A program made the position numbers and the translations under genes. 64,000 nucleotides of DNA from an uncultured virus (IMG/VR IMGVR_UViG_3300044647_000866) (lineage: Duplodnaviria > Heunggongvirae > Uroviricota > Caudoviricetes): the IMG/VR virus record IMGVR_UViG_3300044647_000866; one strand, given 5' to 3'. Each line of letters opens with the position of its first letter. Positions within the stretch are counted from its first letter, which is position 1. A model generated the notes under the pieces. The model was not told the origin of the DNA and ran no database searches. It was given only the letters and a program-made list of their open reading frames with translations. This document shows positions 3,357-57,842 of this stretch, in pieces.

Positions 3357-3362
3357 GTCGTG

Positions 3363-3399: not shown

Positions 3400-3414
3400 A
3401 AGCCAGGAGGTTCC

Positions 3415-3825: not shown

Positions 3826-3833
3826 GGTAGATC

Positions 3834-4544: not shown

Positions 4545-4550
4545 TAAGAC

Positions 4551-5234: not shown

Positions 5235-5631
5235 GCCGTTCGTAGCCGACGTTCGTAGAGAGTGGGATTGGGTAAGACCGGGTATTGAAGAGATCTTACG
5301 TAACTCTAAGGCTCTTACGTATCGGGCGGAAGATGTGTACGCGGCGTGCGTTAGCCAGCAAGCCGTGCTTTGGGTGACTAGTGAAGGCTTCGTCGTTTCG
5401 ACAACCGAGACTGACACCTTCACAGGTAAGAAAACGATGTTTCTTTGGCTCGCATGGGCTAAGGAAAAGGGGAATAGCTTGGTATCTAAGTATCAATCGT
5501 TCTTCGAGAGAGCGGCGCGCGAGGCGGGGTACAGCTACCTTGAAACTAGGTCGCCCTTCCTAGGCTTGATGCCGCACTTAACAGAGAACGGTTGGTCGAT
5601 TGATACCGTGGTGTATACGAGGGAGCTATAG
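5176..5631 (+). CDS. GNAT-like protein preceding ejection genes (copy 1)
   Basis: W..VRPGIEE...EDVYAAC...GFVV...FLWLAW...AREAGYSYLETRS pattern; true start uncertain. Confidence 0.55.
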   Translation: MAGSTLHSHNGEIVTVAAVEPFVADVRREWDWVRPGIEEILRNSKALTYRAEDVYAACVSQQAVLWVTSEGFVVSTTETDTFTGKKTMFLWLAWAKEKGNSLVSKYQSFFERAAREAGYSYLETRSPFLGLMPHLTENGWSIDTVVYTREL

Positions 5632-6272: not shown

Positions 6273-6275
6273 GTA

Positions 6276-6953: not shown

Positions 6954-6962
6954 AGGTAAGTC

Positions 6963-9560: not shown

Positions 9561-9563
9561 TTC

Positions 9564-12500
9564 GTGGCACAAGATCGCTTTCAGGCCTTCTTCCAGCTCG
9601 CGGACCCGCGTAGAAGTGTCTCTGAAGTTTTAGATACCGAAGACCCCGCTACCCCCCGGCCGGACAGCATGGAAGTCCTGCGGGGGCAGCGCCAGGTCGC
9701 AACCCCCGTTCCGGCTACAACTGGTGACGTATTTCGTGCGGGGATACAGACCGGCGCTGAATCGCTCGGCGCGGATATTGAATACTTTCGTGCGCTGTTT
9801 AACACCGTTACCGGTGATAGAGACGAAGCAGCAAACAACATCGCTAGCGCGCGTATGCGCGAAGAGTTTGCTTCCGTCCCGCTTGACGGCGTGGAGACTT
9901 TTGAAGAGTTTTTGTCTGAACCGACTTTTGGCGGATTCATAACTCAAGCTGCTAAGGGGACAGGACAAGTCCTGCCCTCCGCAGCTCTGTCTATTGCTAG
10001 CGCTGGTACAGGCGCTATCGCAGGCGTAGTAGGTCGCGGCGTACTAAACCAGGTAAACCGCCAGGCGGCCAAGCGTATTATTAAGGACTCGGTTGATCGT
10101 ACTGTTCAGGGTGTCGCCGACCCCGCCGAGCAGCAGATCGCTGAGCTGGCCTACGGCTCGCTTCGTCAAGCGGCTACGCGTGGCGCAATCGGTGGTGGTT
10201 TTGCTGCTGAGTTTGCGCCTTTGTCGGGCAGCAACCTGTCGGAAGCCTTGGAGTCCGGCCAGCCTCTTGATAGAGATACAGCATTTCGTGCTGCTGCTGT
10301 CGCTGTCCCACAAGCCGCTATCGGCGTGGGCAGCGAGTACGCCTTGCTCAAACTGATCGGTGAGCAGGCTACAAAGCGTGCTGCCGTAGAAGGCGGGATC
10401 TTTGCTAACTTCGCCAAGCGCATCGGAACTGGTGCCTTGCAGGGCGGCGCTATCGAAGCGACGACTGAACTGGCGCAGGAAGGCATCGCGGTTGCTAACC
10501 GTGCTGATCTTGACCCGCTGTTCACAGCCGAAGACGCCAAGATGCGTTTGGCCGAATCAGCCTTTGCTGGCTTCTTTGGCGGTGCTGCTCCCGGCGCAGC
10601 TGGCGGTGTCCTTGGCGCTACAGGCGACGCTATCGCGCGTACTCCGCAAGGTGCTCGCGACGCAGCCGGTAACGTTGTAGATAAAGCCGCTAGCATCTTC
10701 GATCGCGCCCGTCGCATGCTGGACACCGCCCGTGAGCAACGGGTCAATGACCAGGTCAACCGAGAACAATTCGGTGACATCTTCTCTGGTGGCACGACTC
10801 CTGAGCCAGAGCGCGATATCGACGCACAGCTTCGGGCGATGCTTGACCCTACTAGCGGCAAGCAGGCCGTGTGGGTTGCCGGTGAGGCTACTAAGATCAA
10901 AGCCCGCGCCAATAAGATTTCTGAGATCGTTATAGACGGAAACGAGGCGTTTGCTTCGTTCATTCCTGGCCGGGGCACGATCGTATCCACCAACCGCAAT
11001 CTGGTCGAGGAAGTCGTAGCCGCTGGCGCGTCCGACAAAGCTCTCCAGGTTGCTCTCGGCTACAGTGCAGTAAAGAACTCTGCTAATCCGGGTGACCTAG
11101 TCGTTCAGGTGTTCGACAGGGAAGGCCGTGTTGTATCCGAAGAGGCCACAACACAAGACAACTTGCCTGCGGCTTTTCAGGCAGCTGGCAAGCTCATGCC
11201 AGAGGGCGGTCGTGTCGAGCAGACCACTGTCGAGAAGGCACTCGAAGATCGCAAGCGCCGCTTTGAGTCAGAGCAGCGCGTTGAAATCCGCGAGATGAAT
11301 GTTGAAGACGATCAGGATGGGACTGAAGACCAGACTGACGTAGATACCTTTGCTCAGGGAACCCAGACCGTAGAAGGGCAGCGTACGATTGTTCGTGCAT
11401 ACGGCCGTAAGGCTGATCCGACTCGTACGTTTGATAATACGGCCCAGGCTCGCGCTAATTTCGATAGCGTGTTTGGTGAGACAAACTGGAACGACCGTCG
11501 CTTTGGGGCGATGACTGAGGCCATGTTGAACGCAGCCGCTAACGAGCAGCGTTCAAACCCTGACTCGGCTGTATCTATTGAGGATACTCCTGACGGTGGC
11601 TTCCAAGTCGTACGAGAAGATTTTGGTGACCTGTTTCGAGCCATCGATACTTCTGGCAACGAAGTACGTCTCAACCTTGGAGCGTTCCTGCAGTCGGCCA
11701 TTCAACGTGCACGGCGGAGTAAGTATGCTCGTAACTCTCGTGTTGTGGTTGTTGGCCCGGACGGTAAGAAATCAGCCGTTAACCTTGTTGATCTGACCGC
11801 TGCTGGCCAGCGTCTAATCGAGGGCCGTGAAGGCGCAGGCTTTCAGTTACGCCAAGCCCCGCGTACTGGCGCTACCTTCATGGCTCCAGCGGCCGCTGCT
11901 AGAGCAGGACTTTTGGAGATTCTTGGCGATATGGCTGTCGAGGGCTACGACGTCCAGATCGACGGGCAGTCCATCCTTCGAAACCAGAATCGTATCCCAA
12001 AGCAACTTGGCAACGTCACGGCAGCGGTAGTAGGTACTAGCCGCATCTCTCTGAACAATCTTCTGAACCCCGTCCAAGAGCCAGTTATGACGGCAGAAGA
12101 GCGCCAAGCTGCGCTTGCTGCTGAACCACTCGGCCCGCCGAGAGACGATGTTTCAGATGGCCGTACAGAAACAGAACGTATGATCGAGTCGAGCGTTACG
12201 GGCGGTGAGCTCCTAACGCCGATGAACATTGACACGCCGGTGTCGGCAATTGATCTCCGTCGCGGCGCAGCCCCTAGCACTTTACGCCCCACAGAAGAAA
12301 CCCCGCTCTCACCGCGAGAGCAGGCGGTGGTGTCTGGCGCTGTAAACAGCATGGTGCAGGGTGTCATCCAGGACTTGCTGGCCGCCCTTAACTTTAAGAA
12401 TCCGCCACGAATCTACACGTTTGCCCAGCTCGACGGCATGACCACGGAACAGCTCGCAGCCGAGTTCCAAGGCGCATTTGAGTCTGTGCAGATCAGCTTG

Positions 12501-14990
12501 AATAGCCTTCGTGAAAACCCAAGCAATTTCGGCAGGCACGTGTCTGGCCCTTACGGTAAGGTGATTATCTACCGCGAAACCCGCAACCCTTTACAGGATG
12601 CACTTGTAGTCGCGCACGAGATTGGCCATAGCTTGTACAAGGAAGAGCGCGATAAGGCCCTCCAAAACAAGGCGTTGAGAGATCGTCTTTTTAAGGCCTA
12701 TAAAGCGTCCCCAACTTTTAAGGGCCTTAGCGAGCGGTATGGCTTTGATCGCGGTTTCGAAGAGTGGTTCTCTGACCAGGTAGCCCTGTGGGCGAATCAG
12801 CGGTATAAAAATAAGCAGCCACAGAAGCTTGGCGATCGATTCTTCCGGGACTTCGTAAACCGCCTCCGTGGTCTGTGGCGCGCTACCAGCGAGAGTTTTC
12901 GCAAGCGATTTTCGCAACGACTAAACGAAGACTTCGAAACGTTTATGGACTCCGTGATTGAGTCCCGGCGTAATCAGGTCAATGAGAACGGGCTTAACTT
13001 CACCGAAAAAGCGTTCGTCTACGAACTTGACGAGATGACAATCCAAGGCGGGGGCCCGGCGCTTGCCGCACACTGGCAGTCGAAGATTTCGTCGCTTAAG
13101 CGCAACAAGTACGTCCAACCGATCCTCAAGTTCGTGATGACCGCAGACGGCATACTTCGTATGTACGGCGGGGATGAGCTTGCGGATATGTTCTACGTTC
13201 GCGCACAAGACCCAACCGGCAAGGGCCGACTTGGATTTGTACCGCAGGCTGCACGCACGTTCGACGAGTACAAGAACCGTATCGAGAAAGAAATCGGCGC
13301 GATGGATGATCCGGCTCTCGACGCCGCATTTGCTGAGGCTGAGTCTGATACACCGACTTCTCAGCTTACCGGTAAAGCGCTGGCTATCCGTCAGTTCTTG
13401 GAAGAGTTCTACGCCGAGTATGTCTCGCCGTCTAAAACTAAGATCGGCTTCCAACAGAACTACTTCCCCCGCGTTCTCGATCTTATTGCTATCGCAAACG
13501 ATCCACAGGCGTTTGTTGATCTGATCGTTCGCTCTGATCCCAGCGCCAACCCGCAGACAATTCGCAGACGAGTGGAGAAACTCGTCGACTTGCAGCAGGC
13601 CATTGTTAATGGCGACAACGTCGAAGGCAATCCGCTCGATCCGAACGCTAGCGTTAACGAGGCTCTTGAACTCACCGCCAACGTGTCCCGTAACGATCTT
13701 CGCGCGTTTCTCGTACCGCCGAAAGAAGCCTTCTCGCGGTATATCCGAAGCGTCGTTAAGCGCGTTGAGTTTGACCGCGCCACTAAGGACGATGAGGGTA
13801 ACGATCTACTTAGGCCGTTGCTCGATAGACTTAACCCAGAGGACCGCGAAGCGGCCATGGGCGTTATCAACACTTACATGGGCTACCGCGCCCCGCTCAG
13901 TCCGTTCTGGCGCAAGCTGAACAGCTGGGGGCAGTTCCTTCAGTTCGTCACGATTCTTCCGTTTGCTGCTATCTCGTCTGTAACGGACTTGGCTGGCCCA
14001 GTCATCGCCTCGAAAGAGTTCGGGGCGCTGACAACTGGCATGAAAGAAGTCATTGCGACGATTAAAAATCGCGATGAGGCCATGCAACTAGCCCGTGACA
14101 TCGGCGTGGTTACGCCAGAAGCCGTAGCTAACTCTTGGATCACTGAAGCTGACGCCGATTACATGGACCCTATGGCGCGTAAGGCGTCTGACTGGTGGTT
14201 CAACATTACTGGTCTTAACTGGTTCACCCGGTTTACCCGTGAGTTTGCGGCTGGCATGGGCGTACAGTTCATCACCAAGCACGCACGCAACGAGTTCAAT
14301 AACCCGCGAGCAGATCGTTACCTCAGCGAACTTGGCCTGACACGCCAGGAAGTGCTGGATTGGATTGCTGGAGGCCGCAAGCTGACCACGCCAGAAGGTA
14401 AGAAGGTCGCTCAAGGTTTGCAGCGTTTTGTTGAATCCTCCACGCTTCGTCCTAATGCGGCAGAGCGTCCTGTTTGGGCGTCTGACCCGCACTACGCTTT
14501 GATCTGGCAGCTGAAGGGGTATTTCTACTCCTACGGTAAAGTCATCCTTGGCGGTATGTTCGGCGAAGCTGAAACTCGCTTGCGTGAGCAGAACATTGGC
14601 ACCCCGTGGGGCCGCGTTGGTTCGGCTGTCGGCTTGATGGCTTTGACTGCGGTAGCCACGATGCCTCTTGCAATGATGGGGATGGAGCTCCGCGAGTACG
14701 CTAAGTTTGGCCTCGCAGCATTGTTCCCCTTTGTTGAAGCTGATCAGAAGTACTTCAAGACAGACCGTATGGACTGGCCAGAGTACCTTGGTACCGCGTT
14801 TGAGAAGTCAAACTTTAGTGGCCCATTTGGGCTGATTACAGGAGCCTCGCAGGCAACAAACTTCGGCGATAGTCCGTTGTTCACGCTGCTAGGCCCCACG
14901 GCTGAGACTATTGATACTGCCTTTCAAAATGGCTGGCGCGTAGACCGGACGTTGAAGGACCGGCTGCTGCCCGTTTATAACGTGCTGTAA
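9564..14990 (+). CDS. Large internal virion (polyvalent-like) protein, 1808 aa
   Basis: G/A-rich N-terminus (GGAIEATTELAQE); HEIGH...FEEWFSD metallopeptidase-like motif; C-terminal LIWQLKGYFYSY region. Confidence 0.75.
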   Translation: MAQDRFQAFFQLADPRRSVSEVLDTEDPATPRPDSMEVLRGQRQVATPVPATTGDVFRAGIQTGAESLGADIEYFRALFNTVTGDRDEAANNIASARMREEFASVPLDGVETFEEFLSEPTFGGFITQAAKGTGQVLPSAALSIASAGTGAIAGVVGRGVLNQVNRQAAKRIIKDSVDRTVQGVADPAEQQIAELAYGSLRQAATRGAIGGGFAAEFAPLSGSNLSEALESGQPLDRDTAFRAAAVAVPQAAIGVGSEYALLKLIGEQATKRAAVEGGIFANFAKRIGTGALQGGAIEATTELAQEGIAVANRADLDPLFTAEDAKMRLAESAFAGFFGGAAPGAAGGVLGATGDAIARTPQGARDAAGNVVDKAASIFDRARRMLDTAREQRVNDQVNREQFGDIFSGGTTPEPERDIDAQLRAMLDPTSGKQAVWVAGEATKIKARANKISEIVIDGNEAFASFIPGRGTIVSTNRNLVEEVVAAGASDKALQVALGYSAVKNSANPGDLVVQVFDREGRVVSEEATTQDNLPAAFQAAGKLMPEGGRVEQTTVEKALEDRKRRFESEQRVEIREMNVEDDQDGTEDQTDVDTFAQGTQTVEGQRTIVRAYGRKADPTRTFDNTAQARANFDSVFGETNWNDRRFGAMTEAMLNAAANEQRSNPDSAVSIEDTPDGGFQVVREDFGDLFRAIDTSGNEVRLNLGAFLQSAIQRARRSKYARNSRVVVVGPDGKKSAVNLVDLTAAGQRLIEGREGAGFQLRQAPRTGATFMAPAAAARAGLLEILGDMAVEGYDVQIDGQSILRNQNRIPKQLGNVTAAVVGTSRISLNNLLNPVQEPVMTAEERQAALAAEPLGPPRDDVSDGRTETERMIESSVTGGELLTPMNIDTPVSAIDLRRGAAPSTLRPTEETPLSPREQAVVSGAVNSMVQGVIQDLLAALNFKNPPRIYTFAQLDGMTTEQLAAEFQGAFESVQISLNSLRENPSNFGRHVSGPYGKVIIYRETRNPLQDALVVAHEIGHSLYKEERDKALQNKALRDRLFKAYKASPTFKGLSERYGFDRGFEEWFSDQVALWANQRYKNKQPQKLGDRFFRDFVNRLRGLWRATSESFRKRFSQRLNEDFETFMDSVIESRRNQVNENGLNFTEKAFVYELDEMTIQGGGPALAAHWQSKISSLKRNKYVQPILKFVMTADGILRMYGGDELADMFYVRAQDPTGKGRLGFVPQAARTFDEYKNRIEKEIGAMDDPALDAAFAEAESDTPTSQLTGKALAIRQFLEEFYAEYVSPSKTKIGFQQNYFPRVLDLIAIANDPQAFVDLIVRSDPSANPQTIRRRVEKLVDLQQAIVNGDNVEGNPLDPNASVNEALELTANVSRNDLRAFLVPPKEAFSRYIRSVVKRVEFDRATKDDEGNDLLRPLLDRLNPEDREAAMGVINTYMGYRAPLSPFWRKLNSWGQFLQFVTILPFAAISSVTDLAGPVIASKEFGALTTGMKEVIATIKNRDEAMQLARDIGVVTPEAVANSWITEADADYMDPMARKASDWWFNITGLNWFTRFTREFAAGMGVQFITKHARNEFNNPRADRYLSELGLTRQEVLDWIAGGRKLTTPEGKKVAQGLQRFVESSTLRPNAAERPVWASDPHYALIWQLKGYFYSYGKVILGGMFGEAETRLREQNIGTPWGRVGSAVGLMALTAVATMPLAMMGMELREYAKFGLAALFPFVEADQKYFKTDRMDWPEYLGTAFEKSNFSGPFGLITGASQATNFGDSPLFTLLGPTAETIDTAFQNGWRVDRTLKDRLLPVYNVL

Positions 14991-36297: not shown

Positions 36298-39200
36298 ATG
36301 GCCATTGATACTTCATTCCTGTTTAAGCAGACCGGATCGACTCAGCCTGAGAAACGAGCCGCTGCGATACAGGATGCCGCCGCACAGCAGGATGACCAGC
36401 TGATCACGGGCACTCAGCCGTCGTCTATCGACACTAGCTTCCTGTTCAAGGCTCCCGCTCGCGCCGCTATTCCGCCTGAGACAACACCTGAAGAAGTTGC
36501 CGCTGAGCAACCCGGCACGTCTAACCCGCTTTATGGTGCTGCCGCTAGAACAGCAACCATTGCTGGCGAAACTGTCGAGGCCACGAAGCGCGTTGGAGAA
36601 GCTGCTCCTGTATCAGCCTTCCAGCCGGGTATCTCCGGACTTGGCGCTGGGATTAAGCTTGTCGCCCCAACTCTACAGAAGTGGGCAGACGGTCTTCGAG
36701 GCTGGGGAGAGAGCATTGGCTACTCTCCTAGCACTCAGCTAAAAAACATAAGCGACAATCCATTAACTCTTATTCCGTTTATCGCGGAAAGAGTTATCAC
36801 ATCTGTTCCCGATATGGCTGCTGCAGCTTTGGCTACTCCCGTGTATGCCGCTGCTCGCACAAACGAAGTGCTTAACGAGCGCCTCAAGAACGATCAGAAA
36901 ACTCTTGAGGATGCCACGGTTGGTGACGTTGCCACCGCCGCTGGCGTTGCCGCTGTCGAAACTATGTTCGAGCGTTTTGCCACTAACCGCATCTTCAAGA
37001 AACTTCCTGAAGGCGAGGGCTTGTCGATTCCGCGAACCCTCCAAGAGACTGGCGTTCAGGCTGGAACTGAGGGCGTAGAAGAAGCCGCTGCGTACCTTGG
37101 CGGAACAGCTGGCACCAAGGCTGGCGTAAACGTCAACGACCTTGCGGCTAACGTACTTGAGGGCATGATCGTTGGCGGCGGACTTGGCGCAACAACTCAG
37201 GCTGTTAGGGAGATTGCCACCGCGCTCCGGAAGGAGCCTTCTGCCGGCCCCACAACTGCAGAAGCGCAACCGACCCCAGTGGCACCTGTTGGAGAACCCG
37301 CAGCCACAGCCGAAACAACTACTGTTTCACAGCCTAGCACAACTGTTGTTTCTGACGCGCAAGCTGCAGCACCGACTGTTGAGCCTGCTGGAACAGCTGT
37401 TACCCCTGTCGTTACGGATCAAGGGGTTACGGCTCCGGCTCTTGCTGTTGCCGCTGCACCAGTAACAGCTGCTCCCGCAGAGACAGAGGGTGCGGGAATT
37501 ATCTCGACTGCAGACCTCAAGCAGCAGCTCGTCGAGATCGATGCCGAAGCTGCCGCCCGTGCTGCAGAACAGGCTCTGGCCACGACTGAGCTGCCCGAAG
37601 GCCTTACTGTGGATAACTCCGTCACCGAAAACTTCGGGCCGGATGACACACGCTTCGCCGCCTTCGAGTCGCCTACCGACAAGGAGCTGTATGTCCTTGG
37701 CAAGCTGAATCGTCGCCCTGCAAAGACGCCTGAGCTGACGGAGACGGCGCGTCAGCTGACTTCCAAGGTATCTGAGGCTCTGGGTATCCCCGTCGAGGAA
37801 GTCGCCCAGAGGGCGGAGGCGACCCGTGTGGCGACACAGAACGGGTTGTCCGGCGTCCAAGCTGGGGCGGTGTATCGAGTCCCGACAGGGATCACTACGC
37901 CTCCCGTCAGCCCCCTAATGCAGCTTGCGAGCGACCAGATCGGGGAAAAGTTTAGCCTCCCAGAAGGGGAGAAGGTTGTCATCCCCGAAGCGCCGGTTGA
38001 CCCGGTGCGCACTAAGATCGCCTCCGTCATCAAGGATGCGTTCGGGGTGGACGTGGTGTGGGCCAGCCTGCCGAAGGGCGGCAAGGTCAAGACCAACAAG
38101 GGCCGCGAGCTGGTCGCCATCAACGGCGCACGCATTGCCGGCACGAATGCCATCCTGCTCGACGCCAACAACTACAGCTTCCTGAACACGCTGGGCCACG
38201 AGCTGACCCACGTTCTGGAGACTCAGTACCCGCAGCTTTATCAGCAGCTGATAACACTCGCCAAGGCGAAGGTCAGCAAGAAGTTCCAGAACCAGCTTCG
38301 CAAGGAAGTTGCTAACGATGCTGAGTTCAACTCAGAGCTGGTGGCTGAGATGGTCGGCGAGCAATCGACTGATCCGAAGTTCTGGCAGGAAGTGTTCGAC
38401 GCAGCTGGCGATCAGACTTCCGCTCAGGGATTCCTCGATGCGCTGAACAAGATCATCGACCGTATCCTGAGTGCGCTTCAGGGCTACCAGCCGATGGTCG
38501 TCCAGAGCCGCAAGGATGCACTGGCCGTGCGTCAGGCTGCTCAGCAAGCGTTCCAGCAGTGGATCACGGCACGACAACAGGCTGCTCAGCAGGTCGCCGC
38601 AGACCAGCAAGCCGCAGTGCAGGCTGCCGCAGCCGTTACTCGCCCAGCGCCAGCGGTCAATCCGTTCTTGGTCGGCACATCACTAGACCCAAATGCACCC
38701 AAACCGGCGGAGCTTGGCCCACCGAAGGTTCCACCTTCACGGCAGGCTCAGGTCAACATTGGCCAGAAGGGCCGCCGCTTTGTCACCTTTGCCGCTGACC
38801 TCGACAAGGATCTGTTCGAGCTTGGCGCTAAGCTGAAGAAGGCCGCAAAAACGCTGAGCAAGTCTGACCGTGAATCAGCCGACGCTCGTCTCGTTCGGTT
38901 TATGGCCGTCACCGGCCTGCCCCGCGCAGAGATGATCGATGTCGCAAAGAACTATCGAGATGCTGTCGTCAAGGCAGCGGGTGCTGTTCAGGAGGACGGC
39001 ACCTACGAAGCCCCGGCAACCAACATAGGAGAGCGTCGTGCCGTTGAAGAAAGGAAAGTCGAAGAGCGTCGTGAGCCGCAACGTGAGCGAGCTGATGAAC
39101 AAGTACGAGAAGTCCGGCAAGATCGGGAGCAGCCGCCCGTCGAGCAAGCCGAAGGCGCAGAAGCAGGCGGTCGCGATCGCGCTGCAGAAGGCAGGCCGCA

Positions 39201-42200
39201 GCCGGAAGAAGTAGCCGCTGAGGAAGAAGTCGTAAGGGAGCTGCCGCAGTTCTCGCGTAAGCGTCCTGCGGTAGACCCCGACTTCGCCGACAGTGTTGCT
39301 GAAGATGTTGGCCTCAACGCAGAACTATCTGAGGCCACGTCTCTCAAGTACCAGACCGGCAAGTCCGGCGAGGATCAGTTCAACACACCAGTTGTTGGCG
39401 GACTGACCAACACTGTTCTTGAGATTGAGCGTGCCCGTCGAGAAGGCACTCTTGGGCAGCTCGACCTCGACAGCGAGAGCGATCGCAATACTGTTGCGAA
39501 GATGCTTGCCGCCGAAGTTGTTGCTGCTGTTCGTGCCGGCGGTGGCGCTAAGGAGTGGTATGACAAGACCATCCGTCGCACTCTCGCTATGGCATCGCTC
39601 AAGTTTCCTGAGCTTTCCACCGACAAGGAAGCGCAGACCGCATTCCGTCTGTCTGTTGCCATCACTTCGCAAGGCCTGAACGTAGAGGACAACCTCAAGT
39701 TCGCCATGCAGGTGTACGGTGAGTACAGAAAGAGCGGCACCTTCCCGCTCAAGGGGCAGGGCAAGAACGGCGGCGCGATGGTGAGCAACTTCCAGCTTGC
39801 CAATACGCTCATGGAAAAGATGGGCATGGAGCGATTCTCTCGCTTCCTTGAGACTGACTTCGTTGCGTCTGAGTTGAATGCAGTCGGCTTCAACATCGAC
39901 GAACTTGCTGACGAGAAGATCCTTGGCTCGTCTGTGTTCGGCCCGAAGATCGGCTTCGGCTTCTACTCGAATCTCTCTGGCAACTTCGAGCCTGTCACGA
40001 TCGACATGTGGTTCATGCGAACCATTGGCCGCTTGATAGGCAAGCTTCGCGCTTTCGACGCCAAGCTGTTTGCCTCGCAGCGAGACAAGTTCCGTGCAGC
40101 GTTTGCTGTTGAAGGCGTCAACGGCATCTTCATCAATTCCCGCAACATGTCTGGCAGCCGTCTGTTCAGTGCAGACCTTGTGCAGAACGCGGCAACAGAC
40201 GATGACGCAGCTGTTACTTTGGCCCGACTTGTTACCCGTGCGCACGAGCGTGACTTCAAAGTCAATCGCAAGGCCTACGACAACAAGACTCGCGTCAAGT
40301 CATCGCTAGTCAATAACGCGGCCAACATGCTAAAGTCCCTCGACAAGCCGAAGGATGCACCTTCGAGCGGGTCTGAGAGGCGCAACCTACGTGACATTGT
40401 TCGTCAGACAGTCTCCCTTGTTGAGGGTGTTGTCGGCGAGCGTATCCCGCCGGCTTCTATGCAGGCTCTTGTCTGGTATCCAGAGCAGGAGTTGTACAAG
40501 TCGTTTGGCGTGAAGCTTCGTGTAACGAGCCAAGACTATGCCGGTGCAATCCGTAAAATCCTTGAGAAGGAGGGATACAGTGGAAGAGAACTCAGCGCAG
40601 CAGCCGAATCTGGATCAAGAGGCGCACAACGAGTGGCTGGCCAGCCTCTCGAAGCCGAAGATGCTGGAGTTGTCGGACAAGTTGAACAGCCTGATGCTGC
40701 AGAAAGAGCAGGCCGCCAGCTCACCGCAAGAGAGCGTGAGCGACTCCTCGTCTCCGAAGTCATTAAGCGGTATCGACAGAGCAGTGCAGAGGCACAAGGG
40801 TCTTACAAGATCCGAAGCGCAGGAGATGGCCGACGCATTCGGGTTCTGAGTAATGACGCCAAGGCTGAATACAAGCCGGTCATTACTTTCAAGAATGCAC
40901 TTGGAGCCGTAGGCAAGCCGGCTCCCACCATGTACGAGCTGGATGGCGGAGCGCCCTTGTTCCGTCAGGCCATCCAAGACTCGAAGAACAACAGCAAGTT
41001 TGGTGCTGCGGTCTACGTCTACGACGAGGCCGACTACGCCAACATGCGCCTGTTCATCTCTGATGACGGCAAGTCAGGCTTCGCCCTCAAGGGCAATGAC
41101 ATTGTCTCTGTGTTTAGCGGACAGAAGGGATCTGCCAACGCCATGCTGCAGCTTGCTGTGGATCAGGGCGGACAGCGGCTTGATGCCTTCGACACTGTTC
41201 TTCCTGAGCTGTATGCAGACAACGGCTTCAAGGTTGTTGCTCGCGTTAAATGGAATGACGAGTACAGCCCTGAAGGCTGGGACAAGGCGACGTTCGCCAA
41301 GTACAACAACGGCGAGCCTGATGTCGTGTTCATGGTCTATGACCCGGCCAACGCTTCTGAGCTTGGCGGCAAGACCATTGAGAACTACGACGATGGCGTA
41401 GCTGCGCAGGAAGATGCGATCGGCAAGCAGACTATCCAGTTCTCCCGTGTTCGCAGCGAGACAAATGCTGACGGCAAGCAGATTGCCAGCACGCCTGAAT
41501 TCATCCAGAACTTCTGGAACTGGTTCGGCGACAGCAAGATCGTAGACCGCCGTGGCCGCCCAAAGGTCATGTATCACGGCACGATTCCGCCCACTGTTGG
41601 CGCTGAAGAGTTTATCGACCAAGGCATCAGCGTGTTCCGCCGCGGCACTGGTGGCGCGATCTTCGTGTCACCTGACGAGCGAGTTGCGAACACGTACGCT
41701 GGGCCGGGTGGATCTGTGTATCCATTGTATATACGCGCTGAGAATCCGTTCGACTTCGAGAATCCTGATCACGTCAAGCGAGTTCTGGATATCTGGGAGT
41801 CCAATAACGTCGGTATCCGCGAGACTCGTGAGCAGGCCATTGCCAAAGGCAAGTGGCAGATGATCGAGAACGTCGAGATCCAAGACGCCATCAAGCTTGC
41901 CGGCTTCGACAGCTACTACGTGAAGGAGACTGGGGCCAAGAACCTCGCGCTGTACGACCCATCACAGTTGAAGTCAGCTGTTGGGAATGTTGGCGAGTTC
42001 TCGCCTGAGCGTCCTGAGATCCAGTTCTCGAAGGTGCGTCAGGGCCGCAAGTACTGGCTGCCTGAGTTCGGTCGACTGCAGCGTTTGCTGCGTGGCGTGC
42101 AAAACGAAGTGCTTGCCACTGCTCGTGCGCAAAGGGCTGTTGCTGCTCAGGGTGGCGTGCTGACTGACTCGACAGAGATCGAGTCGGCAATGCATCGCAT

Positions 42201-44712
42201 GTATGGCCGCGCCGGAAACCGTCTCGATCGCTTCCGCAAGGACGTAGTCGAGCAGATCCTCAAGCGTGCTTCTGACATGAACGTCAGCCTTGCAGACGTT
42301 GAGCTGTACTTGTACGCCAACCATGCCAAGGAAGCGAACCGTCGCATTGCTTCGATCAATCCGCAGATGCCAGATGGCGGCTCAGGCATGACGAATGCTG
42401 AAGCTGATCAGGTTATGGCAACGCTGCGGCAGGACATGCCACAGTTCCTGCGCACGAAGTCCATCGCAGATGAGATTCAGAACATCACAAAGATGACTCA
42501 GGCTGCGCTGGTCAATGGCGACATTGTCAGCCCTGCTGATTTGGCCGCTTGGAACGCCACGTACAACTACTACGTTCCGCTCAAGACATTCGAGCAGGCT
42601 GACGATCTTGGCCGGGTGACTGGCAATGGCCGGTTTGACCTTGCCAATGCATTCTCGAAGCGTCGACTTGGTCGCAGCAGCAAAGCCGGCGCGATCGTCG
42701 AGAACATCTTGGCGGACTACGAGGAAGCTGTTGTCGCTGTTGAGCGAAACAATGTACGCAAGGCGTGGCTGCAGTTTATCCTGAGCAACAAGGACAGCGA
42801 ACTGTGGCAGGTCAACAAGCCTGTCATGCAGCGTGCGTTCTACAAGAACCCTGTCGAGGAAGTTCGATACCGCCTGACTATCCAGAAGGATGCGGAGACT
42901 CTCCCAGTCCGTGTGGGTGGCGAGGTGTATCACATGGTCATCAAAGACCCTGAGATCCTCGAAGAACTGCAGATGACGAGTGTCCTGTCGCAGTTCCCGG
43001 ATACGATCAAGTCAATCCTTGGCGGCATGAATACGTTTGGCCGCACGCTATCCAAGCTGTGGACTGTGCTGTCGCCGCCGTTCGTGCTGATCAACGCATC
43101 TCGCGACATTCAGACATCGCTGATCAACACCGGCATCGACCAAGGGCTGTGGAGTTCCGCGAAGCTGTTGGCAACACTGCCGAAGGCTGCTTACACAGTG
43201 TGGCGTGCTGAGCGTAACAACGCTTGGACTGGCGACCTGAAACAGTACTACGACATGTATCGTGCTGATGGCGGCAAGACTGGTGCGCTTGATCTGAGGC
43301 AGATCGAAGACCGCCACAGTGATCTGATGTCCATGTATCGCAACGCACAGGCGTCGATAGGTAAGCCACTGACGTACCACCGCCTGACCATGCGGTATCT
43401 GAAGGGCGTAGAAAACTTCATGATGGACATCAACGGTGCCATCGAAGGCGCTGCTCGTGTTGCCGCATACAAGGTCGCAATGGAGAACGGTAAGTCGCGC
43501 ATCCAAGCGACTAACATTGCGAAGGAAATCACGGTCAACTTCAACCGTCGCGGCAAGTGGACTCCGGTGCTGAGCGGAATGTACCTGTTCTTCAACCCTG
43601 CAGTTCAGGGTGCAAAGCGCACGGTGAGCGCTGTGTTCAGCAAGCGTGGCGCTGCTGTCGCAACTGGGCTTGCAACCCTTGGATACTTCATTGCAGAGAT
43701 GGCGGCCTCCGCTGTCGGTGACGATGAGGAGCCGTACTGGGATAAGCCATCAATGCGCCAGACTAAGCTGAAGAACCTTGTGTTCTTCGGGCCGAATGGC
43801 GAGACCTACAATGTCCCGCTGCCGTATGGCTTTGGCTTCTTCGTGAACCTTGGCTATGCGCTTCGTGACCTGAAGAATGGCGCAGACCCGTTAAAGGTCG
43901 GTGCGTTTATGCGAGATTCCGCATCGCTTCATTTCTCGCCGCTTGGCTCGATGGACAACATGGCGACCTTCCTGTCTCCGACGCTCATCGATCCGGCGAT
44001 GGTTCTCATCACTGGCGAGAAGGAGACTGGCCTGCCGCTTATGCCGGAAGACTTCACTGGAGTCACCCCGGACAGCGAGCGGTACTGGAACAACACTCGC
44101 GATACGATGTTCCAGAACGTAACTGCTGCTCTGTATGAGATGACCGGCGGTGGCGCTGGCGGAAAGATGGCTATCGACGTGTCGCCTGAGTCTGTCGAGT
44201 ACATCACGTCGTTCCTGACAGGCGGTGCTGGTACGTTTGTGAAGGATGTCATCAAGACATTCGATGCGATGGCCAACACCGGCACTGCGTCGGCCACTGA
44301 GCAGAACCTGATCCCGATCTTGAAGGCCGTTCACAGGCAGCCCGACGGTCGGTATGACTCCAGCGCGTTCTACGAGAATGCCAAGGAGGCAAAGGAAGCC
44401 GCTCGTGACTTCAATGCGATCATGGAGTCAGAGACCGAAGTGTCCGAAGAGAAGCTTGCCTACGCAGACTCTGTTGCTGGCATGGCCGCACTATCGCGGT
44501 TTGCAGACAAGCAGAAGCGAGCCATCTCAAACCTGCGCCAGCAGGACTTGGACATCCAGCAGGATGAAACTTTAACTAGGGAAGAGAAATATGGACTTCG
44601 TAAAGAAATTGCTGAGCAGATTCGTCAAACCCAAGTTGAGTTCAACGTCGCCTTCTACGCCGAGCGTCGAGCCGCCGAAGCAGAAGAAGCAGAAGGTCAA
44701 GCTGAAGAATAA
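36298..44712 (+). CDS. Giant polyvalent ejection protein, 2804 aa (HExxH, GNAT-like, ART-like, LPD38-like C-terminus)
   Basis: GHELTH; VTIDMW; RLDAFDTVLPELY..NGF; WFGDSKIVD..G.PKVMYHGT...QLKSAVGN.GEF; TVNFNRRG...YLFFNPAVQG...VPLPYGFG. Confidence 0.85.
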   Translation: MAIDTSFLFKQTGSTQPEKRAAAIQDAAAQQDDQLITGTQPSSIDTSFLFKAPARAAIPPETTPEEVAAEQPGTSNPLYGAAARTATIAGETVEATKRVGEAAPVSAFQPGISGLGAGIKLVAPTLQKWADGLRGWGESIGYSPSTQLKNISDNPLTLIPFIAERVITSVPDMAAAALATPVYAAARTNEVLNERLKNDQKTLEDATVGDVATAAGVAAVETMFERFATNRIFKKLPEGEGLSIPRTLQETGVQAGTEGVEEAAAYLGGTAGTKAGVNVNDLAANVLEGMIVGGGLGATTQAVREIATALRKEPSAGPTTAEAQPTPVAPVGEPAATAETTTVSQPSTTVVSDAQAAAPTVEPAGTAVTPVVTDQGVTAPALAVAAAPVTAAPAETEGAGIISTADLKQQLVEIDAEAAARAAEQALATTELPEGLTVDNSVTENFGPDDTRFAAFESPTDKELYVLGKLNRRPAKTPELTETARQLTSKVSEALGIPVEEVAQRAEATRVATQNGLSGVQAGAVYRVPTGITTPPVSPLMQLASDQIGEKFSLPEGEKVVIPEAPVDPVRTKIASVIKDAFGVDVVWASLPKGGKVKTNKGRELVAINGARIAGTNAILLDANNYSFLNTLGHELTHVLETQYPQLYQQLITLAKAKVSKKFQNQLRKEVANDAEFNSELVAEMVGEQSTDPKFWQEVFDAAGDQTSAQGFLDALNKIIDRILSALQGYQPMVVQSRKDALAVRQAAQQAFQQWITARQQAAQQVAADQQAAVQAAAAVTRPAPAVNPFLVGTSLDPNAPKPAELGPPKVPPSRQAQVNIGQKGRRFVTFAADLDKDLFELGAKLKKAAKTLSKSDRESADARLVRFMAVTGLPRAEMIDVAKNYRDAVVKAAGAVQEDGTYEAPATNIGERRAVEERKVEERREPQRERADEQVREVRQDREQPPVEQAEGAEAGGRDRAAEGRPQPEEVAAEEEVVRELPQFSRKRPAVDPDFADSVAEDVGLNAELSEATSLKYQTGKSGEDQFNTPVVGGLTNTVLEIERARREGTLGQLDLDSESDRNTVAKMLAAEVVAAVRAGGGAKEWYDKTIRRTLAMASLKFPELSTDKEAQTAFRLSVAITSQGLNVEDNLKFAMQVYGEYRKSGTFPLKGQGKNGGAMVSNFQLANTLMEKMGMERFSRFLETDFVASELNAVGFNIDELADEKILGSSVFGPKIGFGFYSNLSGNFEPVTIDMWFMRTIGRLIGKLRAFDAKLFASQRDKFRAAFAVEGVNGIFINSRNMSGSRLFSADLVQNAATDDDAAVTLARLVTRAHERDFKVNRKAYDNKTRVKSSLVNNAANMLKSLDKPKDAPSSGSERRNLRDIVRQTVSLVEGVVGERIPPASMQALVWYPEQELYKSFGVKLRVTSQDYAGAIRKILEKEGYSGRELSAAAESGSRGAQRVAGQPLEAEDAGVVGQVEQPDAAERAGRQLTARERERLLVSEVIKRYRQSSAEAQGSYKIRSAGDGRRIRVLSNDAKAEYKPVITFKNALGAVGKPAPTMYELDGGAPLFRQAIQDSKNNSKFGAAVYVYDEADYANMRLFISDDGKSGFALKGNDIVSVFSGQKGSANAMLQLAVDQGGQRLDAFDTVLPELYADNGFKVVARVKWNDEYSPEGWDKATFAKYNNGEPDVVFMVYDPANASELGGKTIENYDDGVAAQEDAIGKQTIQFSRVRSETNADGKQIASTPEFIQNFWNWFGDSKIVDRRGRPKVMYHGTIPPTVGAEEFIDQGISVFRRGTGGAIFVSPDERVANTYAGPGGSVYPLYIRAENPFDFENPDHVKRVLDIWESNNVGIRETREQAIAKGKWQMIENVEIQDAIKLAGFDSYYVKETGAKNLALYDPSQLKSAVGNVGEFSPERPEIQFSKVRQGRKYWLPEFGRLQRLLRGVQNEVLATARAQRAVAAQGGVLTDSTEIESAMHRMYGRAGNRLDRFRKDVVEQILKRASDMNVSLADVELYLYANHAKEANRRIASINPQMPDGGSGMTNAEADQVMATLRQDMPQFLRTKSIADEIQNITKMTQAALVNGDIVSPADLAAWNATYNYYVPLKTFEQADDLGRVTGNGRFDLANAFSKRRLGRSSKAGAIVENILADYEEAVVAVERNNVRKAWLQFILSNKDSELWQVNKPVMQRAFYKNPVEEVRYRLTIQKDAETLPVRVGGEVYHMVIKDPEILEELQMTSVLSQFPDTIKSILGGMNTFGRTLSKLWTVLSPPFVLINASRDIQTSLINTGIDQGLWSSAKLLATLPKAAYTVWRAERNNAWTGDLKQYYDMYRADGGKTGALDLRQIEDRHSDLMSMYRNAQASIGKPLTYHRLTMRYLKGVENFMMDINGAIEGAARVAAYKVAMENGKSRIQATNIAKEITVNFNRRGKWTPVLSGMYLFFNPAVQGAKRTVSAVFSKRGAAVATGLATLGYFIAEMAASAVGDDEEPYWDKPSMRQTKLKNLVFFGPNGETYNVPLPYGFGFFVNLGYALRDLKNGADPLKVGAFMRDSASLHFSPLGSMDNMATFLSPTLIDPAMVLITGEKETGLPLMPEDFTGVTPDSERYWNNTRDTMFQNVTAALYEMTGGGAGGKMAIDVSPESVEYITSFLTGGAGTFVKDVIKTFDAMANTGTASATEQNLIPILKAVHRQPDGRYDSSAFYENAKEAKEAARDFNAIMESETEVSEEKLAYADSVAGMAALSRFADKQKRAISNLRQQDLDIQQDETLTREEKYGLRKEIAEQIRQTQVEFNVAFYAERRAAEAEEAEGQAEE
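39038..39214 (+). CDS. Nested (+1 frame) small basic protein of the PLKKG...QAVAIAL type
   Basis: AGGAG 6 nt before GTG; (M)PLKKGKSKSVVSRNVSELMNKYEKSGKIGSSRPSSKPKAQKQAVAIALQKAGRSRKK*. Confidence 0.72.
   Translation: MPLKKGKSKSVVSRNVSELMNKYEKSGKIGSSRPSSKPKAQKQAVAIALQKAGRSRKK
40580..40849 (+). CDS. Nested (+1 frame) 89-aa protein
   Basis: AAGGAGG 6 nt before GTG; ends IDRAVQRHKGLTRSEAQEMADAFGF. Confidence 0.6.
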   Translation: MEENSAQQPNLDQEAHNEWLASLSKPKMLELSDKLNSLMLQKEQAASSPQESVSDSSSPKSLSGIDRAVQRHKGLTRSEAQEMADAFGF

Positions 44713-54364: not shown

Positions 54365-56344
54365 TTAGGCTACCCGCCGGGTGTCACCGGCCTTCAACTG
54401 CTCGATCACCTTACGCAGAGCGATTGAGTGCAGGTCGCCAGCGTGGCGTACCGCCGCACCAAACTCGTACGCCTGACTGAGCAGGTCATTCGACGTGCCG
54501 ATGCCGAAGGCGATGACCTCGACATCGAACATCGCCTTGCTGCAGCGCGTCATCTGCAGCACCTTCTGGGACTCGCCGAAGCCGTCGGTGATAACGATCA
54601 CCAGACGCCGGCCCGACTTACGCTGCGACAGTTGTTGAACAACTGCGCGTAGGCAGGTGTAGTCCGGGGTGCCGCCGCTCGCGATCTGTCCCATCCTCAC
54701 GAAGTGATGAGGGACTTGGCCAGCACGATCCTCGAAGCGCTTGGCGACCACGAGGACGCCGGCACGGGACGAGTCTCTATCATTGCCGCCCAGCAGATTC
54801 CCGAACATGTCGCGACCGCCGCCGTACTGGACGTGGTCGTAGGTGCTGGGTGATCGGAAGCCAACCACCTCACACTCAGCGCCAGCCGTCTCTGCGGCCT
54901 GAGCGATCGTCCAAGCAAGTTGGGCGGCGTTCTTGGCGTTCTGTCCGGCCATCGAGCCAGACATGTCGACCATGATGGACACCGAAGTCTCGATGCCCTC
55001 GCTGACCCAGCGGCGCTTGAAGACCGACTCGCTACCGCTCAGCATGCGCGGCGCACGGCGGCCATCGAACCGGCCACTGACCGACCCGCTGTCCCAGCCG
55101 CAACGCTCAGGAGCCTTGAGGATCTGGTACAGACGCGATTTCAGCGCCGGCAACACCGTCTTCGACAGCGTACGCGCTGCTCGACGCAGTCCGGCATCGT
55201 CCTTCTGCATCGATGTCCAGCGGCGCATTTCACTGCGGCCCGGAGGCGGGGCAGACGCCAACGAGATCGGCACCATCGTGCGCTCACGGATACGCTTGAA
55301 CACGTCATCGATGTCAGGCTCAGGCGACTTGCACAACTGTTCGTCGTACTGTTCCTGCCTGTCCTCGTACGGCTCATCGCCGCCGTTGTTGGTGACAGCC
55401 TCGCCGTCCTCGCCTTCGTCGTCTCCGGACTCGATAGGCATAGGAGCGCTGTCGGCCTCGCCGGCTTCAGTCGTCTCAGACATCTCAGCCTCAGCCTGAG
55501 CGAGTTCAGCAGCATCGCTGTCGCCGTCTTCGGAACCGAACGACTCGTCGGAGTCTCCCGACTCAGAGTCGTCGTCTTCCGACTGTTGTGGCTGTTGTGA
55601 CTGTTGCTGCTCCCACGGCTGCCGGCTGTCGGCACTCTGGTCGACAGGCTCGATGGCCTTCCAGCCTTCGAGGAACTGCATCGCCAGCCCCAGCGCTTGG
55701 CCAGTGCCGTCGCGATCCAGCGACAGGCTTGGCATCGCGTCAGCGACCGCCTTGTACAGGCTGCGCTTCGGCTCCGGGATTCGGTCGAGCAGTTTCTTGG
55801 CGAAACCGTTGCCGTCACCCAGCGCGGCCCGACTGATCAGCGCGAGCGCGAATGGCGCACTGTTGATCGATGTCGGGTTGAACTTGTCATCGAGTTTGGA
55901 CGTGAACTGCGACATCAGTCGCTTGAACCCAGACCGCGCACCGTTTGCGCGACCGGACGCAATCACCGCATGCTCGATGCGACCGTCCTCGATTCCGTTC
56001 CACAGATTCCGCAGCAGAGAATACTCCGGGCCTGAGTACCGGAGTAGGCTGCTTTGGTCGGTGTACGCGACGTGCCCGACCTCGTGGCTGGTGTAGGCCG
56101 CGATCAGGTCTGCCTCGATGCGCGACACGAACGAGTTGTCGGGCATGCTGGGGTAGTTGATGCGGTAGGTCATCACCCTGCTACGGTCGGAAGTGAGCGC
56201 CCACTGGGCGAAGGCAATCTCGCCGCCGAAGGTGACAGTGCCGGCCCCTGAGAACACGGCATCGCTGCCCAGCAGCGCTCGCAGTTGCTTCTGCGAGTGG
56301 ACAAGTGCCGCGGCCTTGACGGTCGCCGATTTAATCTTTTGCAT
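54365..56344 (-). CDS. CobT-like protein: HExxH domain, acidic linker, vWA domain
   Basis: HEVGH...NGIEDGRIE; D/E/S-rich linker; MIDAS DMSGSM, GGTP and VITDG. Confidence 0.85.
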   Translation of the reverse strand: MQKIKSATVKAAALVHSQKQLRALLGSDAVFSGAGTVTFGGEIAFAQWALTSDRSRVMTYRINYPSMPDNSFVSRIEADLIAAYTSHEVGHVAYTDQSSLLRYSGPEYSLLRNLWNGIEDGRIEHAVIASGRANGARSGFKRLMSQFTSKLDDKFNPTSINSAPFALALISRAALGDGNGFAKKLLDRIPEPKRSLYKAVADAMPSLSLDRDGTGQALGLAMQFLEGWKAIEPVDQSADSRQPWEQQQSQQPQQSEDDDSESGDSDESFGSEDGDSDAAELAQAEAEMSETTEAGEADSAPMPIESGDDEGEDGEAVTNNGGDEPYEDRQEQYDEQLCKSPEPDIDDVFKRIRERTMVPISLASAPPPGRSEMRRWTSMQKDDAGLRRAARTLSKTVLPALKSRLYQILKAPERCGWDSGSVSGRFDGRRAPRMLSGSESVFKRRWVSEGIETSVSIMVDMSGSMAGQNAKNAAQLAWTIAQAAETAGAECEVVGFRSPSTYDHVQYGGGRDMFGNLLGGNDRDSSRAGVLVVAKRFEDRAGQVPHHFVRMGQIASGGTPDYTCLRAVVQQLSQRKSGRRLVIVITDGFGESQKVLQMTRCSKAMFDVEVIAFGIGTSNDLLSQAYEFGAAVRHAGDLHSIALRKVIEQLKAGDTRRVA

Positions 56345-56353
56345 GACGATTCC

Positions 56354-57571
56354 TCACGCCGCTTCGGGCGCATTTGGGGAGTTGACATCGACCACGTCGG
56401 GCGTGACGACAGGCGGCGCGAGACCAGCCATCGCGGCCTCGATACCAGCGTCCGACATGTTCGCTTTCCATATCTGCTGCAGGACTTCACGCGATTCAGG
56501 CGATGCTCGATTGACCATCGTCTGCTCGAATGCCAGTCGCGGCGGCACCTTGTCGGCCAGCGCCTCAGCAAGGTAGAACGCCTCGCGCAGCGTCGGGACA
56601 TGGTCGAGTTGGCTAGACTGACCAGCCTGCCGCATGACCGACAGCATGCTCACGATCAGCGTCGACAGGTTGCTGTGGACGCCAGTGCGGCTGCTGATGA
56701 CCTGCGCTTCGTCCGCCGATTGCAGGTAACTGAACTCGATCGTGCGAGCGAAGCGGTTGACGAACGCGACGTTCATCTCGCGCACCCCGGCGTACATGCC
56801 GGTGTAGTCGCCGCGACCGTTCGAGTTGTCCGCAGCCATGAACACCACGCCCGGAGCCTTGCGAATCACCTCGCCAGTCTCAGGCACCGTGACCACGCCC
56901 TCCGGCTCCAGCGGCGCATGCAGCGCCGACAGGTACTCAGGTCGAGCGAACGACACCTCGTCGAGCAGGATGACTGCACCGGGGCGCACGAAACCGCGCA
57001 GGATGATGCCGTGCTGGTAGACGGTCGAGCCGTTCTTGACACGCTCGCCGCCGATGAACTCGTAGCGCTCAGCACCGCTGTCGAACGACACGCGGACGAA
57101 GGCGCGACCAAGGCCAGCGCACAGGTTGCGCACGAACTCCGTCTTGCCGGTGCCGGCAGGGCCAGCCAGCCACACGTTGCGGCCACGGGCAACAGCCGTC
57201 ACAGCAGTGAACAGTTGCTCCGCGTTGAACTTGTACAACGGGTCGAGCGCGGGGGCTGCAGGGTCGTTGTAAACATCGACCTCGTACGCACCGTGCTTGC
57301 CGCGGATGCCGAAGACCTCGCGCAGCGACTTGCGAGCGACCACCTCGACGTTGGGCACCTCGACCGCCGCAGAAGGCGTAGGAGCCGCGATCGGTGCGAG
57401 GGAGCCTGAGATCAGGCCCATCGAGGAAATCGCCTCAGCGACCTTCTCCTGCGGCAGAGCGGCCACTTGCTCGATGAAGTCCTGCTTGGACTTGCGAGCG
57501 TAGTCGCCAGCGGAGCCGGACACCCGGCGAACCAACTCGACGAGTTGGGCCTTGGACATTTGGTTGATCAT
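56354..57571 (-). CDS. CobS/MoxR-like AAA+ ATPase
   Basis: GPAGTGKT, ILLDE, AADN..G.G...Y.G...N.AF.NRF; start moved to ATG 57571 with GAGG SD. Confidence 0.88.
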   Translation of the reverse strand: MINQMSKAQLVELVRRVSGSAGDYARKSKQDFIEQVAALPQEKVAEAISSMGLISGSLAPIAAPTPSAAVEVPNVEVVARKSLREVFGIRGKHGAYEVDVYNDPAAPALDPLYKFNAEQLFTAVTAVARGRNVWLAGPAGTGKTEFVRNLCAGLGRAFVRVSFDSGAERYEFIGGERVKNGSTVYQHGIILRGFVRPGAVILLDEVSFARPEYLSALHAPLEPEGVVTVPETGEVIRKAPGVVFMAADNSNGRGDYTGMYAGVREMNVAFVNRFARTIEFSYLQSADEAQVISSRTGVHSNLSTLIVSMLSVMRQAGQSSQLDHVPTLREAFYLAEALADKVPPRLAFEQTMVNRASPESREVLQQIWKANMSDAGIEAAMAGLAPPVVTPDVVDVNSPNAPEAA

Positions 57572-57591
57572 GGGAGCCTCACAGTTGTTGT

Positions 57592-57663
57592 TGATTGTCT
57601 GACCATCGTCAGGCAGCGCATCACGCTGCGACAGGGACGCCTCACGGCGAGCCTGTTTCGGTC
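57592..57663 (-). ncRNA. Hammerhead ribozyme, type II (one-U insertion variant)
   Basis: Minus strand GACC-GAAA-CAGG...CCUG-UC^GCAGCG-UGAUG-CGCUGC-CUGACGA-U-GGUC; loop I can pair with downstream AUCA; predicted cut after nt 57630. Confidence 0.85.
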
Positions 57664-57842
57664 TATCGGGCCATCTCCTTGATGCCCTTGATCCGGCCAT
57701 CGAAGTGGCCGAGTTGGTAGACGTAGGTGATCTGCGATCGAACGCAGGATTCAGACACCACGTAGCCATCTTTCGATGCCTGCTCGATGTACTTGAACAG
57801 TCGCTCGACAATCCGATCGACTTCTTCGTTTTCGTGTTTCAT
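57663..57842 (-). CDS. Hypothetical 59-aa protein (absent from ORF track)
   Basis: MKHENEEVDRIVERLFKYIEQASKDG...; GAGGAGG SD; stop abuts the ribozyme. Confidence 0.65.
   Translation of the reverse strand: MKHENEEVDRIVERLFKYIEQASKDGYVVSESCVRSQITYVYQLGHFDGRIKGIKEMAR

Follow-up and report, generated by a model that had tools for sequence, protein, structure and literature searches.

A small basic-protein gene nested in a linker of a giant polyvalent virion protein gene: probable dual coding in an uncultured Caudoviricetes virus

The nested gene and the giant gene around it

The window analysed here, a whole stretch of 64,000 nucleotides (nt) from an uncultured virus of the Caudoviricetes (IMG/VR record IMGVR_UViG_3300044647_000866), carries on its plus strand a giant gene at 36298..44712 that encodes a 2804-amino-acid (aa) polyvalent virion protein with ART-PolyVal and LPD38 domains. 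Within this gene, at offset +1 and on the same strand, lies a complete second open reading frame (ORF) at 39038..39214 (+), termed nested gene 1, which consists of 58 codons, begins with GTG, ends with TAG at 39212-39214 (+) and encodes a phrog_2423/DUF6496-like small basic protein. A Shine-Dalgarno sequence (AGGAG; 39027..39031, +) stands 6 nt ahead of the GTG at 39038, and an upstream TAG (39026..39028, +), 3 codons ahead of the GTG and kept in the related loci L002 and L168, closes the nested frame, whose open stretch (39029-39214) is almost exactly nested gene 1. The host frame reads the overlap (39037..39219, +) as ERRAVEERKVEERREPQRERADEQVREVRQDREQPPVEQAEGAEAGGRDRAAEGRPQPEEVAAEEE, rich in E, R and Q, an E/R/Q/G/P-rich linker with conserved modules on both sides whose frame is kept open. 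A preliminary description of this DNA had pointed to the AGGAG-6 nt-GTG arrangement, the +1 frame, the 58-aa length and a low-complexity E/R/Q linker in the host frame, all of which are borne out by the sequence and its translations. Nested gene 1 lies whole and out of frame within a larger same-strand ORF and has a ribosome-binding site and a start codon of its own, the features by which embedded genes are recognized.

These features go beyond what chance would readily provide, since nested gene 1 is the only one of 64 alternative-frame ORFs of at least 45 aa within the giant ORF to match a PHROG family (E<=0.01), and since the pattern AGGAG-N5-8-ATG/GTG occurs at just 2 sites in the 8,415 nt of the giant gene, one for each of two conserved nested ORFs (the second is described below). 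Shine-Dalgarno-like motifs precede 18 of the 29 gene starts in the window.

The nested peptide matches phrog_2423 at E 1.5e-8 (35.5 bits), or at E 1.2e-9 (39 bits) with M as residue 1, and Pfam DUF6496 (PF20106) at 14.8 bits (E 0.037), under the gathering cut-off of 24; in the ESM Atlas there is one near cluster, with DUF6496 in 17% of its members. A word-indexed search of 5.8 billion sequences returned 19 homologues of 50-72 aa, with E values down to 1e-15, all of which start with MPLxxG and contain KQAVAIA. The nested peptide has the family residue at 13 of the 13 invariant columns of the 19-sequence alignment (P2, L3, G6, S8, N15, L19, G27, K42, Q43, A44, V45, A46 and A52), and the GTG at 39038 coincides with the MPLxKG N-terminus of the family. 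A profile search of 1.84 billion representatives gave 2,487 clusters at E<=0.001, including 227 at E<=1e-10. Among the best 150 of the 2,487 clusters, the proteins are 55-507 aa long and carry the domain mostly at residues 1-58; in a minority the match begins past residue 17, and one protein of 507 aa has the domain at 180-235. AlphaFold2, run with the family alignment, predicts helices at residues 9-26 and 37-52 (mean pLDDT 84). A Foldseek search of the PDB with this model returned nothing at E<=0.001 (best E 2.9), and the predicted two-helix hairpin is too simple for structural placement. The nested peptide and the phrog_2423/DUF6496-like proteins thus have in common the pattern MPLxKG...N..L...KQAVAIA..KAG (of which KQAVAIA..KAG falls in helix 2), a length of 50-72 aa, a basic composition and a predicted two-helix fold.

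The enclosing protein has ART-PolyVal at residues 1750-1901 (65.3 bits; Pfam cut-off 31.2), LPD38 at 2489-2664 (69.7 bits; cut-off 27) and, as read from the sequence, an HExxH motif near residue 634, and its C-terminal 860 residues match giant PHROG families. PHROG matches upstream of the gene include the major head protein, virion structural proteins, tail fibre proteins and an internal virion protein, and replication genes follow downstream, so that domains above the Pfam cut-offs and a virion gene context mark it as a polyvalent protein. Its modules are shuffled among relatives: L178 has residues 327-918 in common with it and then differs, and L170, L173, L175 and L179 align with it from about residue 1035 or 1052 on. 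The overlap with nested gene 1 corresponds to residues 914-973, between modules. Elsewhere in the giant protein, residues about 447-470 and 828-850 form an internal repeat of a short module (RF..F....DK.L..LG.KL), and L178 aligns to residues 327-763 as well as 808-918.

A near-identical virus record of 55.6 kb (G001) is complete by CheckV. The family profile has one match in the window and one in this complete record, and no family member follows the portal gene of G001; the nested copy would therefore be the only source of the family's function in this phage. Fourteen lake-water metagenome DNA runs contain the stretch and are possibly its source, and three RNA-library runs yielded 5 short contigs over 38600-39021 and 39074-39217 (the latter without differences), while one DNA run searched as raw reads gave none; this is neither proof of transcription nor a population sample. 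A scan of 38500-39500 found no sigma-70-like promoter, and the RNA fold of 38990-39090 is not stabler than that of shuffled sequences (z +0.92; 163 of 200 shuffles fold at least as well).

Conservation and selection across the overlap

The giant protein has an orthologue of 2789 aa in L002 that is 66% identical to it, and the nested peptides of the two loci are 90% identical, with the same GTG and the same stop position. The ribosome-binding site stretch ATAGGAGAGCGTCGTG is identical at 16 of 16 positions, and the bases immediately upstream of it diverge. Identity at host third codon positions is 51% overall (2,735 aligned codons) but 93% over the nested ORF. In a scan with 59-codon windows (n=2,677) the nested ORF is the maximum and all of the 15 top-ranked windows overlap it; with 40-codon windows it reaches 0.97, against 0.88 for the next peak. 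This conserved island extends from the ribosome-binding site to the nested stop. In closer relatives (95-100% identical) the nested ORF carries 0 or 1 change, and several changes come right after its stop.

To separate the two readings, each site was classed by its effect in both frames and the classes were compared by Fisher tests. Between the window and L002, 6 substitutions per 89.5 sites alter both proteins, 8 per 36.3 sites alter the host protein only (nested silent) and 3 per 39.2 alter the nested protein only (host silent); between the window and L168 the corresponding counts are 1 per 88.8, 6 per 36.5 and 2 per 39.7. For L002 this gives a nonsynonymous-to-synonymous rate ratio (dN/dS) of about 0.30 for the nested frame (p 0.024) and of about 0.87 for the host frame (p 1.0), and for L168 a nested dN/dS of about 0.07 (p 0.0026), with p 0.23 for the host frame. 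By these classes the nested protein is conserved and the host residues here are not. The frame-specific dN/dS comparison proposed in the preliminary description thus indicates purifying selection on the nested frame, at small counts.

Both frames are whole in 15 of the 16 orthologous contigs that fully cover the ORF (13 IMG/VR contigs, L166 and L168), and a 3-nt indel in the nested tail preserves the two of them; in L169 the nested ORF runs past the end of the locus. A +1 frame broken in close orthologues, which the preliminary description had named as an observation that would speak against the gene, was not seen, the nested frame being intact in the 13 IMG/VR contigs and in L166, L167 and L168.

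The host frame, for its part, is held open by the codon choice of the nested gene. None of the 58 nested third positions is T, either in the window or in L002; in the host gene, T makes up 23-24% of third positions. A T at a nested third position, when followed by AA, AG or GA, would create a stop in the host frame, so that avoidance of T keeps that frame open. When synonymous codons of the nested gene were resampled by host codon usage, the host frame stayed open in 1.7% (window) and 2.9% (L002) of the trials. The patterns in the two frames indicate selection on both, at the small counts given above. Among stand-alone genes of the family, the frame equivalent to that of the host is stop-free in 9 of 25 at a locus GC content of 0.55 or more, in 8 of 49 at 0.45-0.55 and in 1 of 55 below 0.45. 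Stop-free cases are fewer in the other alternative frame (3, 2 and 0 in the three classes, from high to low GC). By these counts the giant ORF uses the permissive frame, and high-GC phages would be predisposed to such fusions.

Family members outside and inside other genes

Among the 80 best IMG/VR loci of the family, 78 are not nested in a large same-strand ORF, and in phage DSL-LC04 the family is represented by a hypothetical protein of 83 aa (WJZ48066.1) whose separate gene shares 11 nt with the end of the portal gene. Together with the 19 homologues of 50-72 aa, these cases agree with the statement in the preliminary description that proteins of this type normally stand alone in aquatic phages, and supply the stand-alone homologues that a BLASTp search had been expected to find. 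Elsewhere, phrog_2423 proteins are normally encoded by separate genes, and nested gene 1, inside another gene, departs from this usual arrangement.

Upstream genes were surveyed for 69 of 129 distinct stand-alone copies, namely those with an ORF of at least 120 aa ending -30 to +80 nt from the start of the small gene. The upstream gene is a portal gene (phrog_1216) in 25 of the 69, an endolysin gene in 7, a MuF-like head morphogenesis gene in 4, a major head protein gene in 2 and a tail fibre or tail fibre assembly gene in 2; head protease, adaptor and terminase genes account for 1 each, other or unknown PHROG families for 5, and 21 are without a match. The overlap with the upstream gene is 1 nt in 17 of the 69 copies and 11 or 20 nt in 12, and by arithmetic on the overlaps the upstream gene enters the small gene in those 12 in the same frame as that of the giant ORF. 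In L030 (55% GC), a 240-codon open frame at the host-type offset (L030:873-1592) covers a stand-alone member at 1225-1383, an arrangement that could reflect chance or a further overlap.

No unfused ancestor was found among the stand-alone relatives and distant giant-protein homologues examined. The closest stand-alone relatives in IMG/VR (L194-L198 and L206; 69-84% identical to P0005) belong to phages without tblastn similarity to the structural genes of the window (E 1e-6), and the distant giant-protein homologues L170-L189 have no family member within 3 kb. A search for longer in-frame fused forms returned only proteins of 123 and 192 aa. In L199-L205 (for example, L200:1663-2307) the family makes up the N-terminal 58 residues, read from MPL, of proteins of about 170-190 aa that end in a basic KKGGKVSxKKRR tail; the family domain can thus also be part of a larger protein.

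Two further members of the family lie inside large ORFs. In L061 (40% GC) a member at 10001-10153 lies at offset +1 within a 1284-aa ORF (9202-13056), and in L120 (61% GC) a member at 6001-6129, with AAGGAG before its ATG, lies at offset +1 within an open frame of at least 3414 codons (1869-12110). The host frames over both members read as G/P/E/R-rich linkers. The nested stretch of L061 has 55% GC against 42% in its flanks, T is found at 4 of its 50 nested third positions against 33% in the host gene, and the chance of an open host frame is 0.003; in the GC class of this locus, the host-type frame is stop-free in 1 of the 55 stand-alone genes. The host ORFs of L061 and L120 have no BLASTP similarity to the giant protein of the window and no Pfam or PHROG match, and no homology was found for the proteins adjoining the L061 host. 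The three nested cases may have a common origin or separate origins, and no further nested lineage was found among the additional family loci scanned. A GNAT gene lies three genes upstream in both L061 and the window, a weak synteny.

The giant gene of the window contains a second conserved nested ORF, nested gene 2 (40580..40849, +), with 89 codons in the +1 frame, a GTG start and AGGAGG at 40568. Over the corresponding host codons 1426-1513, third-position identity to L002 is 0.85, with a protein identity of only 0.50. Its counterpart in L002 (11543-11809) starts with ATG, likewise ends in ...ADAFGF* and stays in frame through several indels. No PHROG or Pfam family was matched by nested gene 2, and a tblastn search against GenBank phages found nothing. 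At host codons 321-360 (window about 37261-37380), a P/T/A-rich stretch of low complexity, third-position identity to L002 is 0.82 and protein identity 0.70; an alternative-frame ORF (37172-37465, +) lies at this peak, which may be a low-complexity alignment effect.

Interpretation and related systems

We consider it probable that the ORF at 39038-39214 is a functional, independently translated nested gene in true dual coding with the giant gene. Under this interpretation the late messenger RNA of the structural module would carry both readings, no promoter-like site being found nearby. Ribosomes coming from 36298 would translate the overlap into a flexible E/R/Q-rich linker that joins two modules of the giant protein, and other 30S subunits would bind the AGGAG at 39027 and initiate at the GTG at 39038, giving a 58-residue, lysine-rich, two-helix protein that ends at the TAG at 39212. 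The usual place of the family after a portal or MuF-like gene suggests a head-associated or DNA-associated role for this small protein.

The small gene is presumably the older of the two readings and the linker of the giant gene the one laid over it: the former is widespread, and the latter shows drifting residues and a restriction to this lineage. The growth of the giant ORF by reading through a pre-existing gene, as proposed in the preliminary description, is plausible given that the small gene looks clearly older. The likeliest route would be the loss of a stop codon by an upstream gene that, already overlapping the small gene (as in the 12 copies above), then continued through it in the single tolerant frame; the alternative route is insertion of the small gene into an existing linker.

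More generally, giant virion proteins might grow by running through small neighbours, and this family might have been engulfed repeatedly for providing both a stop-free, disordered linker and co-expression with the giant protein, a tentative hypothesis that we regard as doubtful. It is suggested by the way in which the K/A/Q-rich coding sequence, read one base upstream, gives a stop-free, disordered stretch of E, R, G and P, and by the possibility that the small protein works with a giant protein that is internal to the head or ejected, in which case nesting would lock their co-expression. If repeated engulfment were true, the three giant ORFs, which lack detectable similarity, and the second nested gene would represent a general 'gene as linker' design concealed by gene callers.

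Several points weigh against a translated nested gene in dual coding, or against parts of the case for it. Translation of both frames is predicted from the sequence, and the RNA-library contigs do not show transcription. The selection tests use 10-18 substitutions per pair, the pairs share branches and there are only 5 distinct overlap sequences. Nested-silent sites diverge by 0.22 here against 0.49 at host third positions elsewhere, so that recombination, through a more recent shared ancestry of the segment, may add to the conserved island. Because 9 of the 25 high-GC stand-alone genes are stop-free in the host-type frame, the open host frame of the window is less improbable than 1.7%. L061 and L120 are without relatives in IMG/VR, so that the conservation evidence is that of the giant gene of the window, and with its score under the Pfam cut-off the nested peptide is at best related to DUF6496. 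Finally, the 2838-nt metagenome contig L167 has in the host frame a TGA and, inside the overlap, a TAA, with the nested frame open, and its ribosome-binding site is altered from ATAGGAG to ATATGAG, which creates the TGA.

It is improbable, in our judgement, that nested gene 1 is a swallowed relic, engulfed but no longer translated and conserved through the host linker, an RNA or recent recombination. Every class of sites diverges little in the overlap, L167 shows recombination breakpoints at this spot, and the host-type frame is open by chance in over a third of the high-GC stand-alone genes; all of this a relic would accommodate. It would not explain why substitutions favour nested-silent sites while host residues drift, why the ribosome-binding site, the GTG and the stop are kept at 66% host protein identity, or why every invariant family residue is present in the phage's sole copy of the family, and the RNA fold, at z +0.92, gives no sign of a structured element. 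A still smaller chance is given to the possibility that the giant ORF is really two or three genes with small genes between them, the host frame at 39037-39219 being open but unread. The overlap does lie at a module boundary (L178 shares residues 327-918, and L170-L179 align from about 1035), the second nested gene lies in another linker, and L167 combines host-frame stops with a whole nested frame. However, the frame entered by ribosomes at 36298 has no stop ahead of 44712, which obliges them to read through. Beyond the nested stop there is no ATG, GTG or TTG preceded by a ribosome-binding site, and in L167 the host frame has 105 conserved codons before its next start codon. That T is avoided at nested third positions, moreover, shows selection for an open host frame, most clearly in L061 (0.003).

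L167 itself was rejected as a natural split form, the contig being unreliable: its first ~85 nt are L002-like and the remainder is nearly identical to L168, the junction falls at the start of the nested gene, and its three private changes all cluster in the overlap, one of them at the nearly invariant Q41. It is treated here as a recombinant or assembly chimera, with the conserved island acting as the crossover point. Hardly credible is a +1 frameshift near 39030, by which a truncated giant protein ending at 39214 would have the small domain at its C-terminal end. The family does include proteins in which other sequence precedes the domain (the minority among the best 150 clusters, and the 507-aa protein), but the TAG at 39026-39028 closes the nested frame and would confine the shift to the 9 nt before the GTG, where no slippery run was seen by eye, and the family N-terminus coincides exactly with a canonical ribosome-binding site and start.

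The reading of nested gene 1 as an independently translated gene finds a likeness in lambda Rz1, likewise complete and small, which has a start of its own and is read in the +1 frame of the larger same-strand gene Rz. Both are skipped by gene callers, and relatives of both are encoded separately in other phages. Spanins are known in separate, overlapped and embedded forms, and a stop-loss route to embedding is discussed in PMC6139136. The differences are several. The nested peptide has no cysteine and hence no lipobox, and is therefore not an o-spanin like Rz1; it is hosted by a polyvalent virion protein of 2804 aa, where Rz1 lies in a partner protein of 150 aa, and the overlap covers a disordered linker; a functional pairing of the products is not known for nested gene 1; and the same family is embedded in giant ORFs without detectable mutual similarity.

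Overprinted genes are familiar from small viruses, as in phiX174, where E lies in D and B in A. As in those cases, two frames are read here and the constraint is visible at host silent sites. In classical overprinting the embedded gene is new, whereas here the embedded gene would be old and widespread and the enclosing linker new. Overprinting in small viruses is the subject of a review (PMC8227390). The host protein, with ART-PolyVal, LPD38, a virion module and many modules overall, resembles the phage polyvalent proteins described in the available portion of Iyer et al. 2017 (PMC5512222); that portion contains no word beginning with 'overlap' or 'frameshift' and does not describe genes nested in polyvalent linkers. 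Literature searches on nested, embedded or overlapping genes with polyvalent or virion proteins did not turn up a polyvalent protein described as containing a nested gene; one paper that combines the terms sought does so in unrelated passages, and a search for DUF6496 returned no paper. Embedding itself is well known; within the reach of these searches, what is new is the family, the type of host gene, the reversal of ages and the recurrence. To a specialist a nested gene in a phage will be unsurprising, and what is noteworthy is that an old gene provides the linker of a giant protein, recurrently and with a second nested gene.

Standard gene callers omit same-strand nested genes, so that the sole copy in this phage of a family with thousands of clusters would go unannotated. 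The direction of overprinting would be reversed, an ancient embedded gene holding open, by its codon choice, a young and drifting linker. This offers a testable picture of how multi-domain polyvalent virion proteins may be assembled from neighbouring genes, and the presence of the family in three giant ORFs, together with the second nested gene, suggests that a systematic search of giant-protein linkers for hidden genes would be worthwhile.

Away from the overlap, the window carries two adjoining genes on the minus strand (54365-57811, -), that match PHROGs described as cobaltochelatase CobT-like (phrog_1576, 5298 and 17276) and as an AAA ATPase labelled 'porphyrin biosynthesis' (phrog_249); PHROG labels place the latter families among auxiliary metabolic genes.

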